The position numbers were made by a program, and so were the translations under genes. The notes beneath the pieces were generated by a model. That model was not told the origin of the DNA and ran no database searches. It saw only the letters and a list, made by a program, of their open reading frames with translations. A DNA stretch of 64,000 nt from Escherichia phage PNJ-9: sequence record PQ100635.1. One strand, 5' to 3'. Each line of letters starts with the position of its first letter. The first letter of the stretch is position 1. This document shows, piece by piece, positions 1,079 to 37,668 of the stretch.

Positions 1079-3061
1079 TTAACCACCTACAGCACCAATC
1101 AGTTCGTCGAAATCGGCACCAGTTGCTGTTGCTACAAAGTTCAACGTAATATAATTTATCGAGCGGGCAGGTTGTAAGTAGAAAGTAGCTACAAATTCAT
1201 TACGGTCGATAACTGCTGGGGTGTTATTGGTAGTATCACAAACAACTTTAAAGTTATATACACCACCGAGAGCTTTAATACCCTGTAGATATTGAGAAGT
1301 CTCTGTACGGAAAGAAGAACGGGTGAATGCGTTGTTCAATTCAAACAGGCGATATTTGGATGCTGAACCAATGTTCGTTTTAACCATATTGAACAAACGA
1401 CGAACGTTAATACGGTCAAATGGTGAAGGAACAGAAGTGGCAGTTTTATCACCGTACAGAACATACCCATCACCACCGGTACCAGTAACAGGGTTAATAG
1501 CTTCTTGATACAAACGATCACGCTGTGGTTGGCGAGTTTCAATTGCAAGCTTAATAACGTTAAGAATTTGACCACGGTTATAACCAGCAGGAGACATCCA
1601 AGGCTGAGAAATATTGTCTGTGCGAGCACAAAGACCAGCAATATCAGCAGCTAACGGAACCCAACGATTCACATCATTATATTTGTCATATTGATATTTA
1701 TAGTTACCGTCAATAGCCGCGTAAGTAGAACTTACATTAAAGTTATTATCAGTGTAAGTTCCTGACGCAGTACGCCAATCAACCAGATTATCAACTGCAC
1801 GATTAACAGGAATACCGACTATAGTTGCACGTGGCGGCGAGCAAAGAACCAAGCAATCTTGGCGAGAATCACCAATTGCTACAACATGTTTCTGAACTGT
1901 AGAAGCAACTTCTAAAGATTCACCTGCACAAGAACCGGCAATAAACAACTGCGCATTAACAGATTCGCGGTCAGCAAACAAATCCCAAGCTTCCATTAAA
2001 TCACCGGCGTCAACCGTTTCATTAGATGATAAGCCGCCACCCAGTTTGATTACGCCAGAGAAACCTTTTGGCCAACCTTGTGCAGTAGCGAAAATATAAT
2101 TGCTTGCGCCTTTAGCAAAGAAATCATCAATAAAGATATTACTACCATAAATATCGCGTTCACCACGTTTAGTAGAAAGAATTACGCTCTGAACTACAGC
2201 ATCGTTACGACGAACGATAATTGCATATTGGTCATCAGTTTGTGGGCCATACCCAAAGATTGCTTTAGCAGTAGATGCACGAGTACCACCATCAGGATAA
2301 ATTTTTAACTGGGCTGAAGCACCTTTGTCATAGTCTGCTTTAGATACGATTTCAATTTCGAGCTGGTCGCCAAGTTCACCAGGATAAAGAGCAACTACGC
2401 CTGGGACACCATATTTTTTAATAGATTCTTGGAAAGTTAGAGAAGTAATAGCTTCTTCAGAAGTTTCAACTTCAGTTAACAGAATACCTGAATCGGTTAC
2501 GATAGAACCAATTGTAATAACGCCAGAGAGTCCAGAAGAAGAACTGGCAACTTCGGCGGTCCAGTTAGAACCCAATGCCGGATATTCATTAATTTCTTTT
2601 GCACGAGCAATAATTTTACCGGTTGGGATATAAATGTTAAGAATTTTACCATCGACATCAACTGAAGTGACATAACCATCTGCTTCAACAGTTTCGGTCA
2701 AATACTTAACGATAATTTTATCACCAACTGCATAGTTACTACCAGCAGCAGAGATTGTGAATTCAATATTGCCTGCTACAGGAGATGAGTTCTTAGCAGT
2801 ATCACGATCAACTGCGCGTACAACACGAAGGTCATTACCATATTGAAGGAAGTTCATAGCAGACATGAAATAATCTGCTGTATCTGTATTAGGAGTACCA
2901 AACATATCAACCAATGCAACTTCATCAGTGATTTGTTTAATCTGGAATGCAGGTCCCCATTGGAATTTTCCAGCCAGGGCAGCAGTACCAGTGGAGTTAT
3001 TAACTACAGTACTCTGTACGGTAGTTTCTTTGAGCTCAACGCCCGGAGAGAGAAGTGCCAT
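1079..3061 (-). CDS. 18: tail sheath protein gp18
   Basis: 660-aa ORF MALLSPGVELKETTVQSTVVNNSTGTAALAGKFQWGPAFQIK; matches T4 gp18 as recalled in sequence and length. Confidence 0.95.
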   Translation of the reverse strand: MALLSPGVELKETTVQSTVVNNSTGTAALAGKFQWGPAFQIKQITDEVALVDMFGTPNTDTADYFMSAMNFLQYGNDLRVVRAVDRDTAKNSSPVAGNIEFTISAAGSNYAVGDKIIVKYLTETVEADGYVTSVDVDGKILNIYIPTGKIIARAKEINEYPALGSNWTAEVASSSSGLSGVITIGSIVTDSGILLTEVETSEEAITSLTFQESIKKYGVPGVVALYPGELGDQLEIEIVSKADYDKGASAQLKIYPDGGTRASTAKAIFGYGPQTDDQYAIIVRRNDAVVQSVILSTKRGERDIYGSNIFIDDFFAKGASNYIFATAQGWPKGFSGVIKLGGGLSSNETVDAGDLMEAWDLFADRESVNAQLFIAGSCAGESLEVASTVQKHVVAIGDSRQDCLVLCSPPRATIVGIPVNRAVDNLVDWRTASGTYTDNNFNVSSTYAAIDGNYKYQYDKYNDVNRWVPLAADIAGLCARTDNISQPWMSPAGYNRGQILNVIKLAIETRQPQRDRLYQEAINPVTGTGGDGYVLYGDKTATSVPSPFDRINVRRLFNMVKTNIGSASKYRLFELNNAFTRSSFRTETSQYLQGIKALGGVYNFKVVCDTTNNTPAVIDRNEFVATFYLQPARSINYITLNFVATATGADFDELIGAVGG

Positions 3062-3088
3062 TTTAATTCCTCTTAATTTGCTTTATTT

Positions 3089-5414
<2,326 letters not shown>

Positions 5415-27224: not shown

Positions 27225-27512
27225 ATGAAAACCTATAAAGAATTTATATCACCTGTTGCTAACGTTTCTACTCTGACCGAAGCAACCCTTACTTCCGAAG
27301 TTATTAAAGCAAATAAAGGACGTGAGGGTAAACCAATGATTAGTCTGGTTGACGGCGAAGAAGTAAAAGGTACTGTTTACTTAGGGGATGGATGGTCTGC
27401 TAAGAAAGATGGCGCTACTATTGTTATCTCTCCGGCTGAAGAGACCGCACTGTTTAAAGCTAAGCATATTTCTGTAGCTCAGCTTAAAATTATTGCAAAA
27501 ACTCTTCTGTAA
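27225..27512 (+). CDS. ipI: internal protein I-like capsid-targeted protein
   Basis: 95-aa ORF with N-terminal capsid targeting sequence MKTYKEFIS; sits next to 57B as ipI does in T4. Confidence 0.65.
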   Translation: MKTYKEFISPVANVSTLTEATLTSEVIKANKGREGKPMISLVDGEEVKGTVYLGDGWSAKKDGATIVISPAEETALFKAKHISVAQLKIIAKTLL

Positions 27513-31770: not shown

Positions 31771-31799
31771 TTTACAAACTCTTGAGAGCAGAGTATAAT
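31771..31799 (+). promoter_or_regulatory. sigma70-like early promoter with 8-bp inverted repeat flanking the -10
   Basis: TTTACA 31771-31776, 17-nt spacer, TATAAT 31794-31799; TGAGAGCA/TGCTCTCA arms; near-identical copy at 63321-63348. Confidence 0.55.
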
Positions 31800-31840: not shown

Positions 31841-32434
31841 ATGAACACACTGAAGAAACTTGTTGAATTCATCCGCACTAAACTGGGTACTGCTATGGCT
31901 AAAAATCTGACTGTCGAAGAACAGTATAACGCAGCTGCAGATAAGTTGATTACCCAAATCAAAGAACTAAAAACGGCTTCTGTTAAATCTATTAATGAAG
32001 AAAAACGTATTCGCGAACTTGTTATTGAAAAGAATAAGCAAGCCGCTTCTAAGGAACGTGAAATTCGTAAGCTCTTGGCTGAAGGACAAGATGTTACCAT
32101 GCATGCTAAGCTTGGTCTTCTGTATCGTCGAACTGCCGAACAACTTAATACAAAAGCCGACGGGTACGCTGCTATGCGAATTGAAATTGCTCGTAAGGTG
32201 GTTGAACTTGATGATGCTCGTCAGAACCTGGCAATCAAACTTGAATACATTCGTGAAACTCGAGCGGCCAATGCCCTTGGTATCTCTACGGCTGATGATG
32301 TAATTGAAATCGCTGCACTGACTAAGGTTGATATCGAAGACACTCTGACTCGTGTTGAAACGTTCAATGGCACTCCAGCTGGTGTCGAAACCACTTCTGC
32401 TGATGTACAAGAATATATTAACTCTTTGAAATAA
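31841..32434 (+). CDS. coiled-coil early protein
   Basis: 197 aa from ATG 31841 (SD AAAGG; ORF track starts at TTG 31826); predicted long helices. Confidence 0.5.
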
Positions 32435-32442
32435 AATAATAC

Positions 32443-32464
32443 GGAGGACTCCGGTCCTCCTTTT
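32443..32464 (+). terminator. rho-independent terminator
   Basis: GGAGGAC-tccg-GTCCTCC followed by TTTT. Confidence 0.65.
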
Positions 32465-32483: not shown

Positions 32484-33080
32484 ATGCGAAACCAAAATAA
32501 TGATATTGACTCAATGTTCGAAGAGTTCCGAGATAAGGTAAATCCACCTACGTCTTTAGTTGATTCATTACGATATGTTGCAACTGGACGTAAATGGTAC
32601 TGGTCGTCTTCTTATGAGACAACTGAATATGCAAATAACCGAAAATCTTTATTAGCCCCAGGTATTATGATTCATGATATCGGAGCTATTGCTAAACTAG
32701 TTGCAGACCATGATATTAGATTCACTGATTTCGTTGCTCCTACGTGGTCTGTTTGTTGTTTAAACACTGAATGGGAATATATCAGCGAACGCTCTGAAGA
32801 TTATTATGGTTTTAGAGACAAGCTTTTAAGGTCTAACATGTTTTATATTGATACAGAAGTTCTGGTCAATAATAAAAAATATTACTTTACGTTAATCGTC
32901 GATTCTGAAACTATGTATGAAGGCAAGCCTTTGCTTAAAAGAGTTGATGCTTTAAGTGCTATTGATGCGCTTTATGAAACTATGGTTGTTAGTCCTAATT
33001 TCACTAACAATTTAATCCTTGAGCAATTTATTATGGAATGTAGAGAATATGTCAAAGCCAACCCTATACATGCCAAGTAA
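32484..33080 (+). CDS. hypothetical early protein
   Basis: 198 aa from ATG 32484 (SD AAAGGAG; ORF track starts at TTG 32463). Confidence 0.5.
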   Translation: MRNQNNDIDSMFEEFRDKVNPPTSLVDSLRYVATGRKWYWSSSYETTEYANNRKSLLAPGIMIHDIGAIAKLVADHDIRFTDFVAPTWSVCCLNTEWEYISERSEDYYGFRDKLLRSNMFYIDTEVLVNNKKYYFTLIVDSETMYEGKPLLKRVDALSAIDALYETMVVSPNFTNNLILEQFIMECREYVKANPIHAK

Positions 33081-33444
33081 GCCCTGGGCGTATGAATACA
33101 AGCGTAAATTAATCCCAAATGAAGTACTATTTGGCCCTATTTTAGCTTTAGCGTTTTTAATCTTTATGATTATAGGAGCTATTTTAGATTCCAATAAAGT
33201 TATATCGTCTGATGCAGTGTTTTTACTTATTATACCCGGGTCGTTTATTGTACCATTTTTATTAATGCCTATTAACTGGGCAGGATATTGGTACCAAGGC
33301 CGTCATCACAGAGCTCGAGTTCGTGAGTGGAAAGTTCAGTGCGCAAAAGCCCAAGCTCAATATGATGAAGCTGTTAAAAAGTATGAATATGAAGAAGCTA
33401 TAGAATTCGTTAAGGAAATAAGATGCAAAAGCCTCAACTCTTAA
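33049..33444 (+). CDS. 2-TM membrane protein, FIKECR-tail family member 1
   Basis: Two hydrophobic helices, then a helical tail ending EEAIEFVKEIRCK; start at internal ATG 33049 is uncertain. Confidence 0.5.
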   Translation: MSKPTLYMPSKPWAYEYKRKLIPNEVLFGPILALAFLIFMIIGAILDSNKVISSDAVFLLIIPGSFIVPFLLMPINWAGYWYQGRHHRARVREWKVQCAKAQAQYDEAVKKYEYEEAIEFVKEIRCKSLNS

Positions 33445-33782
33445 CCGTATGGCCGTCTCTTGGTGAGAACATTCTAATTTTTATTATGAGTATTGGCATG
33501 GGATTTGCCTTTGGATTAGTTGGATTTCTTATTGACGGAGTTGTGTTAGGATTTATAGGGAATACAGGTGGATTCACAGACCAATGGCAGGACCTAAGAT
33601 ACACCCAAGCTTTTGCATCTATCGCATCATTTTGTACCGTAGTCTATTTTTACTACGATTTTATAAACCATAACAAGAAAAATAAAAAGGTTTACGCTTC
33701 TCAAATGATTAGTTATAATGAACTCCTAGCTAGACGTGAAAATGAAACAATAGAAAACTTTATTAAGGAATGTAGAAAATGA
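33423..33782 (+). CDS. 2-TM membrane protein, FIKECR-tail family member 2
   Basis: 119-aa ORF with two TM helices and C-terminal ETIENFIKECRK; overlaps both neighbours. Confidence 0.55.
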   Translation: MQKPQLLTVWPSLGENILIFIMSIGMGFAFGLVGFLIDGVVLGFIGNTGGFTDQWQDLRYTQAFASIASFCTVVYFYYDFINHNKKNKKVYASQMISYNELLARRENETIENFIKECRK

Positions 33783-34084
33783 GTAAGATTATTGAAATTA
33801 AAGTACCAGAGTTTAATGATGCCAAATCCGCTTCAGATGCAATTTATAAACTTCTGAATCAAGCTGAACGCATCGAAGAAGAAGCAACAAAGATCGCAGA
33901 CCAATATGCTGTATCATTTTCTGTAGGTGATTATGGTAGCGGTCGTACTTATTATCCTAAGGGTGAAATTGTATCCCAGTGGATGAAAGATGAAATTGAA
34001 AATAATGGTGGTGATGTTAAACGTGAAGGTAATGGTTACGTTATTACTGAAGGTGCTTGGGTTTCTTCTTCTGCGATGTGCTAA
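33779..34084 (+). CDS. small protein, W-SSS-C tail family member 1
   Basis: 101-aa ORF ending GAWVSSSAMC; N-terminal amphipathic helix; overlapping ATGA start. Confidence 0.55.
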   Translation: MSKIIEIKVPEFNDAKSASDAIYKLLNQAERIEEEATKIADQYAVSFSVGDYGSGRTYYPKGEIVSQWMKDEIENNGGDVKREGNGYVITEGAWVSSSAMC

Positions 34085-34093
34085 GGAATCATT

Positions 34094-34366
34094 ATGTCTA
34101 AAGAACAAACCGAACTGGCTGAAGCCGTAGCAAAAATCTATGCAGCTATTGAGGCTGCCAAAGAAATTGCTGATAAACAAAACACAACATTCGACTTGTA
34201 TCCAGCTTATGGTATGGGTGGAACCTATCATTCACCCGGACAACTTAAAGCCGATCTTGAACGTTGTACAAAAAACGGCTATGCTGAATGGGCTGACGTT
34301 TACCAATACGACTACAACCTGAGCCTCGAAACTGGTGGTTGGATTGCATCTTCTCACACTTGCTAA
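34094..34366 (+). CDS. small protein, W-SSS-C tail family member 2
   Basis: 90-aa ORF ending GGWIASSHTC; shares the Y-G-x-G-x-T-Y-x-x-P-G core with member 1. Confidence 0.55.
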   Translation: MSKEQTELAEAVAKIYAAIEAAKEIADKQNTTFDLYPAYGMGGTYHSPGQLKADLERCTKNGYAEWADVYQYDYNLSLETGGWIASSHTC

Positions 34367-34375
34367 GGAAACCAT

Positions 34376-34573
34376 ATGTCTCGTGAATTAGATTGTGCTG
34401 TACGTACGGCAGTAGCTGCTCTGGAAAACCTGTTCCAAATTGCAACAGAAGAACGCGAAGAAGTTACATTGTGGATTGAAGATAACGCAGGTCTGAATCT
34501 CCAGGACGCGATCTCATTATCCAATAATAGCATTACTGTTCAAGGCTGGGTATCATCTAGTTATTCTTGCTAA
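34376..34573 (+). CDS. small protein, W-SSS-C tail family member 3
   Basis: 65-aa ORF ending QGWVSSSYSC. Confidence 0.5.
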   Translation: MSRELDCAVRTAVAALENLFQIATEEREEVTLWIEDNAGLNLQDAISLSNNSITVQGWVSSSYSC

Positions 34574-34577
34574 AACA

Positions 34578-34607
34578 GTTTACAACAAGATAGGGCTATG
34601 TTATAGT
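34578..34607 (+). promoter_or_regulatory. T4-type early promoter
   Basis: GTTTAC 34578-34583, 18-nt spacer, TATAGT 34602-34607; ATAGGGCTA/TAGTCCTAT imperfect inverted repeat. Confidence 0.55.
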
Positions 34608-34635
34608 AGTCCTATCAAATTAAATGGAGTCCACA

Positions 34636-34875
34636 ATGATTTATTACGAAAGTGTTGGAACTAAAGTGGTTGCTAAAACCATTACTCGTGAAAAGTTTGC
34701 AAAGATATTCGATATGCGTTATAAAAAATCTGAACACAAAGGCATCCGATTCGAAGATGCGCACTGTACAATTTGTCCTTATAATGAAGACATAAACGGT
34801 ACAATCGTTCCATTGGTAGAGGCTTCACATGACGACCTCTGGGATGAATATAATATCGCATGTCGCGAAATTTAA
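34636..34875 (+). CDS. hypothetical early protein with Cys/His cluster
   Basis: ATG 34636 (SD GGAG 6 nt upstream); contains HCTICPYNED; 79 aa. Confidence 0.45.
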   Translation: MIYYESVGTKVVAKTITREKFAKIFDMRYKKSEHKGIRFEDAHCTICPYNEDINGTIVPLVEASHDDLWDEYNIACREI

Positions 34876-34900
34876 GTAATCTAAATTCGAGGAAATTATT

Positions 34901-35857
34901 ATGATGTTAGTTATTGGTTCTCGTGCACTTCACTATCACAGTCTTATTGATTCTAACGCTATCAAAAATAGTGACTGGGACTTTATTGCAGACCAAGGTT
35001 CTTGGAATGCATTCAAAAATCAAATGATGGGTGTATATGTTCATCAAGATAACCCTGATGTCCAAGTTTTCAAATGCTTCCATAATGGACGCGAAACTCA
35101 TTTTGAAGCATATATTGTTCCGGCAATCACTAATGTCCGTGAATTAGTCGGTGAACTCACTCCTGAAGATTTCACGTCTTCTTATGACCTTTTAAAATAC
35201 GCCAAGAAAAATTTGACTAAAGACCGTTTGAACGGGTTTTACTGGGCAACTCCTGAGATATGTCTTGCAATTAAAATGTCTCATCGTTTCAAGAAAAATA
35301 ATCCATTCTTTTTAAAGACTATGAACCATATTCAGTATCTTCGTGGTAAAGGTGTTACACTGAACGATGAACTTACTGAAATTATGCTGAAACGCCAGAA
35401 AGAAACTTTGAACTATGCTCACCCAGTTCTTGACACTTCTAAAAGTGCGTTCTTTAAAGATGACATCTATACATATGACCATGATACTATTCACGAAGCC
35501 ATTGCACTAACAGACCGTCCGGCTTATACGTTTTACATGAAAGACGGTTCTGAAGTCATGACCTCACGCGAGAAGTTCGAATCGTTACCAGAAATGGTCA
35601 AATTGGCCGGCGTATATGAAGAATCATGTGTACTAGCGTTAGAACGTTCTCAGATTCCTAATAACTTTGAAATTAACCCTGAAGCCAGTTTCATGATGGC
35701 ATTAGAAAAAGTCTGCACAAGCATCACCTCCGGTTGGTTCCGTGAGTTCGCTTGGGAAAATTATAGCAAAGTAGTAAGTATGTATCAAAGCTTAGGACAC
35801 GACGATTACGTCAAGCGTTTCAAACAAAATTTTCATATGGTAAAACCTTTCAAATAA
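34901..35857 (+). CDS. hypothetical protein, weak nucleotidyltransferase-like N-terminal signature
   Basis: 318-aa ORF; N-terminus VIGSRALHYHSLIDSNAIKNSDWDFIAD (G-S ... D-x-D, but spacing longer than canonical). Confidence 0.55.
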   Translation: MMLVIGSRALHYHSLIDSNAIKNSDWDFIADQGSWNAFKNQMMGVYVHQDNPDVQVFKCFHNGRETHFEAYIVPAITNVRELVGELTPEDFTSSYDLLKYAKKNLTKDRLNGFYWATPEICLAIKMSHRFKKNNPFFLKTMNHIQYLRGKGVTLNDELTEIMLKRQKETLNYAHPVLDTSKSAFFKDDIYTYDHDTIHEAIALTDRPAYTFYMKDGSEVMTSREKFESLPEMVKLAGVYEESCVLALERSQIPNNFEINPEASFMMALEKVCTSITSGWFREFAWENYSKVVSMYQSLGHDDYVKRFKQNFHMVKPFK

Positions 35858-35869
35858 TTTCACCAAACT

Positions 35870-35899
35870 GTTTACAAGGTCTGTAGTTGTTGATACTAT
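35870..35899 (+). promoter_or_regulatory. T4-type early promoter
   Basis: GTTTAC 35870-35875, 18-nt spacer, TACTAT 35894-35899; GGTCT/AGACC arms. Confidence 0.55.
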
Positions 35900-35936
35900 A
35901 GACCTATCAAAACAAATGAGTGAATGGAGATACAAA

Positions 35937-36137
35937 ATGACTACTTTGAATAAACGTTTCGGTAAAGCTAAACCTGGCTGTGCAGCAGAACGTCGTTACA
36001 TTTTCGCTCAGTTAGAAGATGTAGAGTATCAGATTAATCAAGTTCACATTACTGGCATCGAGCCTATGTGTGGCCTTGAAGCTCTTCGTGAAGTTCGTGA
36101 CGGGTATCGTCGTGATATCGAAGAAATGTCAAAATAA
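35937..36137 (+). CDS. hypothetical early protein
   Basis: 66 aa from ATG 35937 (SD GGAG); basic N-terminus. Confidence 0.45.
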   Translation: MTTLNKRFGKAKPGCAAERRYIFAQLEDVEYQINQVHITGIEPMCGLEALREVRDGYRRDIEEMSK

Positions 36138-36195
36138 GTGTACAAACTGATAGGGCTATGTTATAGTAGTCCTATTAAAACATGAGGAGAATATT

Positions 36196-36501
36196 ATGAA
36201 ATTAACAGAAACCAACCGAATTGGTCTTTTAACAATACTTGCATCACCTTTTTACGCAGCCCTTTCTGTTGCAGTATTACAAAAGGCTTACGATATGGAT
36301 GGTGTTCCTGGTTTTATATTCTTATCGCCGTTTTTGCTATTCGTTGGAGCATTGTTATTATATGCCACGACTGGTTTCGACCATAATGTCTGGGTCAATT
36401 ATAAATGTAAATTGTCTGAAGAAGAACACGCAGAAGCTCGTAAAAAAGCTATTGAATCTACCAATCTAGAAAATTTCATTAAAGAATGTCGAGGAAAATA
36501 A
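36196..36501 (+). CDS. 2-TM membrane protein, FIKECR-tail family member 3
   Basis: 101-aa ORF with two TM helices and C-terminal ESTNLENFIKECRGK. Confidence 0.55.
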   Translation: MKLTETNRIGLLTILASPFYAALSVAVLQKAYDMDGVPGFIFLSPFLLFVGALLLYATTGFDHNVWVNYKCKLSEEEHAEARKKAIESTNLENFIKECRGK

Positions 36502-36502
36502 T

Positions 36503-37189
36503 ATGAATAGTTCTAAAGTGTTTAATAGTCAAGCTCGTGCAGTAGGTGGTTTTGCCGGCGGTATTTCTAATGATAAAATCAAGAACGAGCCTATGTTCTT
36601 CAACTGTAGTTTAGAATTTGCTTATAATAATGGCGGTCCTATTACTCGCTCTTTCATTATGAACTTGCCGGATGATTGGAACACCGACCAGGTTGTATTT
36701 GATTCACGAGTCCACATGCTGATGCCTGGTTGGTATCCTGCTATTCCTGGATATCACCATGATGACGTACCACGCCCAGATATTCCAACAGGACAACATT
36801 TTATTACTGCAGGACAACCTGATTATGACAACCCTCGTTACCATTCTGAACATATTCTTGGTCTTGTTAACGCTGATGTGTGTCCTACTCATTTTGCAAC
36901 AGGAACTGCAGAGTTCAGTCAGATTCCTGATGGCGAACTTATCTATCGCCAGTGGCACAAAGAAGTCCTCGAAAAAATCGAAAAAGGCGAACTAGAGAAA
37001 TGGGAAGCTCCGGACCGTACTCTTCTTCAGTTTGATTGGCAAACATGGCACACTGGTTCTCGTGCAATTAGTAATGGATGGCGGTGGTTCGGACGTGTAT
37101 CTCGTAATACAGACCGAGTTAAAAAGATTACCAATGAAATTCGTGTCAACGCCCAAGTTTATCTGGAATTCCCTATGGAAGGCTGGTAA
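36503..37189 (+). CDS. hypothetical early protein
   Basis: 228-aa ORF, Trp/His-rich (GWRWFGRVSR); no recognisable motif. Confidence 0.55.
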   Translation: MNSSKVFNSQARAVGGFAGGISNDKIKNEPMFFNCSLEFAYNNGGPITRSFIMNLPDDWNTDQVVFDSRVHMLMPGWYPAIPGYHHDDVPRPDIPTGQHFITAGQPDYDNPRYHSEHILGLVNADVCPTHFATGTAEFSQIPDGELIYRQWHKEVLEKIEKGELEKWEAPDRTLLQFDWQTWHTGSRAISNGWRWFGRVSRNTDRVKKITNEIRVNAQVYLEFPMEGW

Positions 37190-37668
37190 TGATTAACAAT
37201 AATATAGACGATGGCAATGAAGGTATTTCATACTATTCAGTAGATTGGACAGGATGTCCATCCTACTTAGTGAAACATATTTGCCAAGAATTTAAAATCG
37301 ACCAGCCAGCAGGTATTATCGTGAACAGATACATTAATGGATATCAACCTATCGATGAAGTAATACGAACAACTCAAGCTGAGCTTGAAAAGTTTTTCAA
37401 TAAGTGCCAATGGATAACAGGATGGATTATATTTGTACCGTCAGTGTGGTTTTTTAGTACTAAGGTGAGTTCTTTCGGTTTTGTTGATATTATTGCTATC
37501 TTATTAGCATCTAGTATCATAAGTGTTGTTGGTGGCATCATTGGCGGCGGTACCGCCGCCATCATTATTAATCTTGTTAAAAGTAGTTTACAGGAACGTA
37601 AAGACAAGATAAAGGCCAAGAATAATGAAGTTGAACGTTTTATTACCGAATGCAGGAATTTGAGATGA
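37189..37668 (+). CDS. 2-TM membrane protein, FIKECR-tail family member 4
   Basis: 159-aa ORF with hydrophobic helices (Gly-rich IISVVGGIIGGGTAAIIINLV) and C-terminal NNEVERFITECRNLR. Confidence 0.55.
   Translation: MINNNIDDGNEGISYYSVDWTGCPSYLVKHICQEFKIDQPAGIIVNRYINGYQPIDEVIRTTQAELEKFFNKCQWITGWIIFVPSVWFFSTKVSSFGFVDIIAILLASSIISVVGGIIGGGTAAIIINLVKSSLQERKDKIKAKNNEVERFITECRNLR

Follow-up and report, generated by a model that had tools for sequence, protein, structure and literature searches.

Five proteins encoded in the e.x gene cluster of Escherichia phage PNJ-9 end in a common tail of about ten residues, which in two of them reads FIKECR. The cluster lies in a 64,000-nucleotide stretch of the phage genome (PQ100635.1), hereafter the window, and Escherichia phage PNJ-6, an RB69/JS09-type Mosigvirus, has the same sequence over this region (100% identity). 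The open reading frames (ORFs) are named here through the RB69 annotation. The tail is a modular C-terminal, cytoplasmic amphipathic helix, a short linear motif on which selection acts at the level of the protein. The gene immediately upstream of its bearers, e.6, encodes, by profile and fold comparison, a divergent PspA/IM30 protein, and the tail may be the handle by which these otherwise dissimilar proteins dock onto it.

A tail motif shared by five e.x proteins

Four of the bearers have two transmembrane (TM) helices and are encoded on the plus strand by e.4 (33049-33444; phrog_2604, 2e-60), e.3 (33423-33782; phrog_2330, 4.5e-50), a homologue of RB69ORF133c (36196-36501; phrog_9798) and e.2 (37189-37668; phrog_2203, 6.5e-50), the last of which carries a soluble N-terminal part of ~75 amino acids before its helices. 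The tail of e.4 is EAIEFVKEIR(CKSLNS) at 33394-33423, the ORF ending EFVKEIRCKSLNS, and in this tail Ile replaces the Cys of the other tails, a Cys being found two residues further on. The remaining three are TIENFIKECR(K) at 33747-33776 in e.3, NLENFIKECR(GK) at 36463-36492 in the RB69ORF133c homologue and EVERFITECR(NLR) at 37627-37656 in e.2, with the protein ends ENFIKECRK, ENFIKECRGK and ERFITECRNLR. The TM and tail region of the RB69ORF133c homologue also weakly matches phrog_2203. A sequence-only reading of the same DNA had reported these four ORFs, and its coordinates, tails and codons were all confirmed, as were the two hydrophobic helices of each protein by a Kyte-Doolittle scan, in which the second helix of e.3 is weak. 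Its description of the tail as a feature of four small 2-TM proteins held for the topology but not for the set, because a soluble protein bears the same motif. This fifth bearer, absent from that reading, is e.5 (32484-33080, plus strand, 198 amino acids; phrog_2607, 6e-95), for which the hydropathy scan gives no hydrophobic helix; its motif, ILEQFIMECR at 33015-33044, lies 11 residues before the stop (end ...LILEQFIMECREYVKANPIHAK).

The probability of such a coincidence was estimated from composition and by shuffling. Translation of the window in six frames contains F[IV].E[CI]R five times, whereas composition would give 0.21 occurrences and nucleotide shuffles averaged 0.27, never exceeding 3. 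All five copies are on the plus strand, in real ORFs, within 11 residues of a stop and inside 4.6 kb. A position-specific scoring matrix (PSSM) built from the tails gives the five sites 24-30 bits, against 15.9 bits for the runner-up in the window. The rest of a related genome was covered in RB69, where the tail PSSM, run on 103000-167560, found no further copy, and neither of two DNA patterns written for the motif core matched the coding strand of 1-41000; apart from ~1-3 kb near gene 55, these scans together take in all of the genome that lies beyond the window equivalent. Since they are empty, the motif is, by sequence, confined to the e.x cluster.

Searches of large databases with e.3, with an alignment of e.5 and with a profile of the four TM proteins of the window returned almost only their own families and no further tail-bearing family. 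A scan of IMG/VR for FIKECRK followed by TGA gave five loci, and of the two that were read one is a JS98/VR7-like phage and the other a chance match without an ORF. The window ORFs are members of the T4 families e.2, e.3, e.4 and e.5 (phrog_2203, 2330, 2604 and 2607; Pfam Phage_T4_Y06O PF26873, and PF26876) and occupy their syntenic position between e.6 and nudE/e, but the databases keep these families separate, with no record of a common tail or of a link to e.6. Neither the shared tail nor the e.6 link was found in any paper or annotation.

Conservation and nature of the tail

Orthologues in nine other T4-like phages, namely T4, VR7 (Gaprivervirus), fDHCT2, LC53 (Winklervirus), PG7 (Karamvirus), Phi_KR8, FBB1 (Roskildevirus), 44RR2.8t (Biquartavirus) and phi1_146002 (Slopekvirus-like), keep the tail; the records of fDHCT2 and Phi_KR8 carry no classification. 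In T4 the tails read FVKECRE, FVKESRC and FVIDCRK, in Enterobacter phage PG7 FIDDCRR, FITECRG, FISKCRT and FIQGIRG, and in Klebsiella phage Phi_KR8 FIKYCRE, FVKEVRR, WIRSCRK and WIKEMK. Erwinia phage FBB1 has six clear consecutive tails and a possible seventh, and the number of tail genes varies by genus from three to seven. The e.5-type genes of Aeromonas phage 44RR2.8t and Klebsiella phage phi1_146002 carry VELFVDYCRR (VELFVDYCRRTASKK) and AMEKFIHSCKK, respectively. In T4, VR7, fDHCT2, LC53, PG7, Phi_KR8 and FBB1, the tail is the best-conserved segment of each family, and the invariant columns cluster in it (F113 and C117 in e.3; F151, I152 and R156 in e.2; F182, C186 and R187 in the e.5-type proteins). 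The e.5-type proteins are very diverged, and the motif is their most recognisable common feature. In reference T4 (NC_000866), e.2 is a 102-amino-acid frameshifted remnant (1985-2461, minus strand, of the stretch read) of the 160-200-amino-acid e.2 found elsewhere in T-even phages; two short ORFs still encode its second TM helix and tail, and the final one (MPWRLRRQQKIFDEKKYAQNLNNFITECRKLK, ending NFITECRKLK) abuts or overlaps the nudE start.

Tails that end so close to the next start codon could owe their likeness to the DNA, and a nucleotide by-product, either an embedded Shine-Dalgarno or coupling element or a recombination junction duplicated with the genes, was weighed on an alignment of 19 such genes (3' ends and downstream junctions) taken from PNJ-6, T4, VR7, fDHCT2 and Serratia phage LC53. 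The K-E pair is indeed encoded by AAGGAA, AAGGAG or GAGGAA in ~10 of the 19 tails, 8-10 nt upstream of the next ATG, where it serves as a ribosome-binding site, and the e.5/e.4 and e.4/e.3 junctions are alike downstream too (M[SQ]KP.L), as after a tandem duplication. Because codons of this type sit at ribosome-binding distance, dual coding partly accounts for K-E; it does not explain F, I/V, C or R, which lie outside the ribosome-binding site and are nevertheless the most conserved. Five Arg codons from both codon blocks are used (AGA 6, AGG 3, CGA 2, CGC 2, CGT 4), both codons occur for Cys (TGT, TGC) and for Phe (TTT, TTC), and the hydrophobic residue at position -3 is encoded by CTA, CTT, TTA, ATT, ATA, ATC, GTT or ATG. 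The spacing between the motif Arg codon and the following ATG varies between -2 and +22 nt, fDHCT2 e.5, LC53_4144 and LC53_7429 have a GAGG site of their own downstream of the motif, and in the e.5-type proteins of 44RR2.8t, phi1_146002 and FBB1 the motif lies well inside the ORF. The variation of synonymous codons and the independent ribosome-binding sites of some copies show that conservation acts on the protein, as the sequence-only reading had maintained against a merely embedded site, and the orthologues keep the tail as well; the resemblance is neither limited to the downstream ribosome-binding site nor lost in homologues. We rejected the embedded site as sole cause on the grounds of codon variety, spacing and separate GAGG sites, and regard the by-product explanation as a whole as scarcely credible.

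The conserved tail does not make its bearers a family. The four membrane proteins had been taken for paralogues, but once the tails are trimmed the only link is between e.4 and e.3, and it is weak (profile-profile comparison, probability 46.5%, over 26 juxtamembrane columns). With the tails included, cross-family matches are limited to the last 12-25 columns (15-18 terminal columns for e.3 with e.2, e.3 with RB69ORF133c and e.2 with RB69ORF133c), barring e.4 with e.3, where 42 columns are matched, and the two e.5 subtypes, which are homologous across 119 columns (probability 91%). Both e.4 and e.3 start with M[SQ]KP.L, which fits an old tandem duplication. As cross-family similarity is limited to the tail, the safest description from the sequences is that of a modular motif on proteins without other demonstrable common ancestry, and a four-member paralogue family is not supported.

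The four membrane proteins share an architecture of two TM helices, a basic juxtamembrane helix and the tail, with a K/R-rich C-terminal segment after the helices in e.4, e.3, the RB69ORF133c homologue and e.2. Hydropathy and the K/R-rich N- and C-terminal flanks of the TM helices place both ends of these proteins, and therefore the tails, in the cytoplasm, as far as can be inferred. The general core of the tail is phi(-3)-x-x-[F/W/Y](0)-[I/V/L](+1)-x-x-[C/I/V/M/S](+4)-[R/K](+5), phi being a hydrophobic residue; positions -3, 0, +1 and +4, all hydrophobic, share one helical face, and four of the five window tails have a helical hydrophobic moment above that of shuffles. That the Cys serves a metal or redox function was considered and is unlikely, as I, V, S or M stands in its place in the e.4 family and in that of LC53_7429, PG7_6098 and KR8_6445.

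A terminal amphipathic helix with aromatic and basic residues, borne by a soluble protein whose neighbours are membrane proteins, recalls the C-terminal membrane-targeting sequences of MinD and FtsA, and the tail could then be a generic helix lying in the plane of the membrane. Such helices, however, tolerate wide drift, whereas F, I/V and R are near-invariant here across families that are 20-30% identical, and the acidic residues that are common at -2/-1 and +3 would be unfavourable on an anionic membrane; we find this explanation quite improbable. The position of the tail at the extreme C-terminus, mostly 0-3 residues before the stop, with a basic end and on unrelated proteins of one expression class, would also suit a degradation or turnover signal by which a host or phage protease times the removal of early proteins. 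This is very unlikely, since in e.5-type proteins the motif is found 6-25 residues from the C-terminus and the tail is not known to resemble the ssrA-like or MuA-like C-motifs of ClpX.

A further resemblance emerged from the tail PSSM, in which the best real genes after the tails are two capsid-targeting sequences (CTSs) of internal head proteins, TYQEFITEAR (11.3 bits) and TYKEFIAESQ (10.2 bits). The CTS (MKTYQEFI[A/T]E) is, like the tail, a short amphipathic peptide with an F-I-x-E core on otherwise unrelated T-even proteins, and phi(-3), F(0), I(+1) and E(+3) align with its residues 4, 7, 8 and 10, of which 4 and 7 are critical for targeting and 8 and 10 for processing (PMC9026906). C-terminal processing by gp21 is known for gp21 itself and for Alt (PMC9026906), and the tail might accordingly be a C-terminal mimic of the CTS with a gp21 site (I/L-x-E), directed to the prohead core or to gp21. 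The CTS, however, is N-terminal and found on late soluble head proteins, whereas the tail is C-terminal and its E is not universal, LC53, PG7 and Phi_KR8 having G, K, Y, S or M there. The reciprocal CTS matrix scores no tail above 7 bits, retrieving seven ORFs with an N-terminal CTS and none of the tails in the window. In addition, the tail genes have no late promoter, integral membrane proteins could not be packaged into the head, and cleavage after the E would take off just 2-5 residues. The failure of the reciprocal scan, the variable E(+3) and the early, membrane-bound gene products led us to reject the CTS and gp21 as the main explanation, and such mimicry is extremely improbable.

The PspA-like protein e.6 and its link to the tail

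The first gene of the group, e.6 (31841-32434, plus strand; assigned from the RB69 annotation and from profile and fold comparison), is the candidate hub to which the tails would bind. The AlphaFold2 model of its product, with a predicted local distance difference test (pLDDT) score of 76, contains a helix a0 (2-22), a long hairpin (25-80, 86-145) and two short helices, and this predicted model has the elements of the PspA/IM30 fold, an amphipathic a0, a long a1/a2-3 hairpin and the shorter a4 and a5. A Foldseek search of the PDB placed Vipp1, PspA and CdvB2 in the top nine positions (E 1.6e-3 to 5e-2), and among viral models the best matches beyond the relatives of e.6 itself were a Snf7-family protein and a phage 'PspA/IM30 family protein'. 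In profile comparisons, the e.6 family aligns over its full length with gp133 of the Ackermannviridae phage pertopsoe (hhalign probability 98.1%, E 6.9e-14), which in turn matches Pfam PspA_IM30 (PF04012) at E 3.6e-8 and 33.7 bits (cut-off 33.9), colinear over 7-146 / 3-143; the Slopekvirus-like e.6 matches PF04012 at E 4.6e-4. In hhalign, the e.6 profile was not significant against a single and possibly inexact E. coli PspA sequence, and hmmsearch of the PDB sequences reached Vipp1 at E 1.7. Based on the profile chain from e.6 through gp133 to PspA_IM30 and on the predicted fold, we concluded that e.6 is a divergent PspA/IM30 protein of the ESCRT-III superfamily. Literature searches gave no relevant paper on a phage-encoded PspA or on the genes e.2-e.6, and none that names e.6 a PspA homologue. 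Everywhere e.6 is annotated as hypothetical or, spuriously, as 'host specificity protein', and among its relatives in Ackermannviridae the pertopsoe PspA-like gene is annotated elsewhere as 'tail completion protein'.

The motif is found in the gene directly after e.6 in nine of eleven phages (PNJ-6, T4, RB69, fDHCT2, LC53, Phi_KR8, FBB1, 44RR2.8t and phi1_146002), and Gaprivervirus phages of the VR26 type, compared for gene order only, have the same succession of e.6, an e.5-type gene, e.4 and e.3. Between PNJ-6 and T4, e.6 is 88% identical, whereas e.5, e.4 and e.3 are 47%, 50% and 36% identical; e.6 is present in 1101 phage records. Judged by sequence, this far stronger conservation of e.6 would be the pattern expected of a hub with docking partners.

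The layout parallels known PspA systems, and it is for this reason that e.6 is proposed as the partner of the tail. In the enterobacterial operon pspA, pspB, pspC, PspB and PspC, which are small proteins of the inner membrane, are encoded after PspA, and the cytoplasmic C-terminal domain of PspC binds PspA (PMC5596341). Both gene orders run from a PspA-family gene to genes of small inner-membrane proteins, and e.6 has the predicted a0 and long hairpin as well as the PspA_IM30 homology reached via intermediates. The phage membrane proteins, however, are 2-TM proteins without homology to PspB or PspC, they number three to seven and share one tail with a soluble partner, which is not described for Psp partners, and no PspF-type regulator is present; the binding of the tail to e.6, unlike that of PspC to PspA, is a proposal. 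In Bacillus subtilis, the small membrane protein LiaI recruits the PspA homologue LiaH to the membrane (PMC7619361), as is proposed on the phage side, but no sequence relation was detected, and the Lia system has a single anchor where the phage would have a set of anchors with a common tail. The parallel extends in part to a third case. Short terminal amphipathic helices mediate partner binding in the MIM-MIT docking of eukaryotic and archaeal ESCRT-III, although there the helix is on the ESCRT-III protein and its partner is an MIT domain, whereas here the helix is on the presumed partners.

By analogy with these systems, we propose that the tail is a common docking handle that binds e.5 and the membrane proteins to e.6, its most plausible partner, a proposal that we hold to be a strong candidate while still falling somewhat short of probable. 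The tail helix would dock e.5, e.4, e.3, the RB69ORF133c product and e.2 onto e.6, and docking would recruit e.6 to the infected cell's inner membrane, or nucleate, tether or regulate it there, and the module would act in membrane maintenance or remodelling.

Several observations weigh against this proposal. No Tevenvirinae e.6 protein, among PNJ-6 and 22 relatives (0/23), matches PF04012 directly, the homology being reached via intermediates and fold, and the four membrane proteins have no PspB or PspC match in Pfam at E up to 1. PG7 lacks a tail on the gene that follows e.6 and has its tail-bearing genes 2.6 kb downstream, and in pertopsoe the PspA-like gene is followed by membrane proteins without a clear tail. 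VR7 keeps intact e.3 and e.2 tails although e.6 and e.5 are missing from the locus and e.4 is 5'-truncated; given that VR26-type sister phages hold the full set, the loss seems, on the evidence of the sequences, to be a recent deletion that took part of e.4 with it. Finally, the structural model of e.5 is too poor (pLDDT 54) to place its tail as free or packed on the domain. The Salmonella phage pertopsoe locus (2965-4368 of the stretch read) comprises, after the PspA-like gene, a 197-amino-acid protein with an N-terminal TM helix and then a 55-amino-acid TM protein, so that the pairing of a PspA-like gene with membrane-protein genes reaches beyond Straboviridae, though without the tail motif.

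The persistence of the VR7 tails without e.6 at the locus would suit another explanation, in which the tail binds a conserved host protein and its bearers are effectors of host takeover, exclusion or anti-defence. This was the function suggested by the sequence-only reading, which had named superinfection exclusion, immunity or defence antagonism. The tail genes are early genes in a plastic accessory region and have no late promoter, their content differs among genera, from three to seven, and phrog_2203 carries the category 'moron, auxiliary metabolic gene and host takeover'. We found no evidence that supports such roles. The proteins show no likeness to known exclusion, immunity or anti-defence families in Pfam, PHROGs or PADLOC, the last being a weak test as it covers defence and not anti-defence proteins, and a host target would leave unexplained the tight link to e.6 across a family, Straboviridae, with hosts from Aeromonas to Erwinia. 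We therefore consider a host target unlikely. On our analysis, the conserved link to the upstream PspA-like gene points to a membrane-maintenance or remodelling module over an exclusion or anti-defence role.

The docking proposal can be taken further. T4-like phages and, in modified form, Ackermannviridae may carry their own PspA/ESCRT-III-type system, with e.6 as the conserved hub and e.5 and three to seven membrane proteins as fast-evolving adaptors that use one C-terminal helix, so that e.2-e.6 would form a single machine for the integrity or shape of the inner membrane; this wider view is possible but on balance doubtful. If true, phages would bring a phage-shock-like membrane-maintenance system with interchangeable adaptors, which would bear on how the infected cell keeps its membrane energised until lysis and would add a viral branch, with a new mode of partner recognition, to the ESCRT-III superfamily. 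T4 is the best-studied lytic phage, and its genes e.2-e.6, without assigned function since they were sequenced, are now linked by one motif and a PspA-like hub. Even if e.6 is not the partner, the tail of ~10 residues offers a handle for finding the targets of these ORFan proteins.

Organisation of the locus and neighbouring genes

The gene order in the window is e.6, e.5, e.4, e.3, a 3.4-kb insertion that includes RB69ORF133c, e.2, ORF130c, nudE (e.1) and the lysozyme gene e. This insertion separates e.3 from e.2 in Mosigviruses, whereas in T4 e.6, e.5, e.4, e.3, e.2 and nudE are contiguous. Each stop in the cluster overlaps or abuts the start that follows, at two junctions by 32 nt and 22 nt, at two others as ATGA and at one as TAA-T-ATG. 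The start of e.4 at 33049 agrees with T4 MSKPSLY, and RB69 annotates the start at the equivalent of 33070; e.4 is intact and conserved yet has no coding sequence in the PNJ-6 GenBank record (2182-2523 of the stretch read), while it is annotated in phage 55 and RB69.

A sigma-70-like early promoter, TTTACA-17-TATAAT (31771-31799, plus strand; 11 of 12 matches), lies 5' of e.6, and T4 record L13089 has -35/-10 signals at the equivalent place. A second sigma-70-like promoter, TGTACA-17-TATAGT with a TG extension, was located by sequence scan 5' of RB69ORF133c (36139-36167, plus strand). No late-promoter TATAAATA box is present between 30210 and 40014. Because sigma-70-like promoters are present and the late-promoter box is absent, the e.x cluster genes are early genes. 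Between e.6 and e.5, a GC-rich stem-loop followed by a T run (32443-32460, plus strand) coincides with a stem_loop at the same place in L13089. Within e.2, at 37542-37561 in its Gly-rich second TM helix, there is a perfect 8-bp GC-rich inverted repeat, TGGCGGCG-GTAC-CGCCGCCA, which was flagged as terminator-like and has no T run.

Between e.3 and e.2 there are further genes. One, at 34901-35857, encodes a 318-amino-acid protein with Pfam DUF7277 and DUF7275 (RB69ORF134c), which is conserved in VR7, fDHCT2 and VR26-type phages; genes of this type are always found near e.x, e.6 or nrd genes, and a similar ORF is noted in the 44RR2.8t record. Three tandem small ORFs at 33779-34084, 34094-34366 and 34376-34573 (RB69ORF139c/138c, 137c and 136c) form a second tail family, with the consensus end G-W-[VI]-[SA]-S-S-x-x-C-stop (GAWVSSSAMC, GGWIASSHTC and QGWVSSSYSC). 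VR7 and fDHCT2 have at least five such genes at the same place, and the 44RR2.8t record notes an RB69ORF139c-like ORF.

On both sides of the e.x cluster, seven plus-strand ORFs, at 27231, 27581, 30251, 38869, 39635, 39953 and 40369, begin with a CTS-like N-terminus (MKTY.EF[IL].E or close to it) and represent at least seven candidate internal head proteins.

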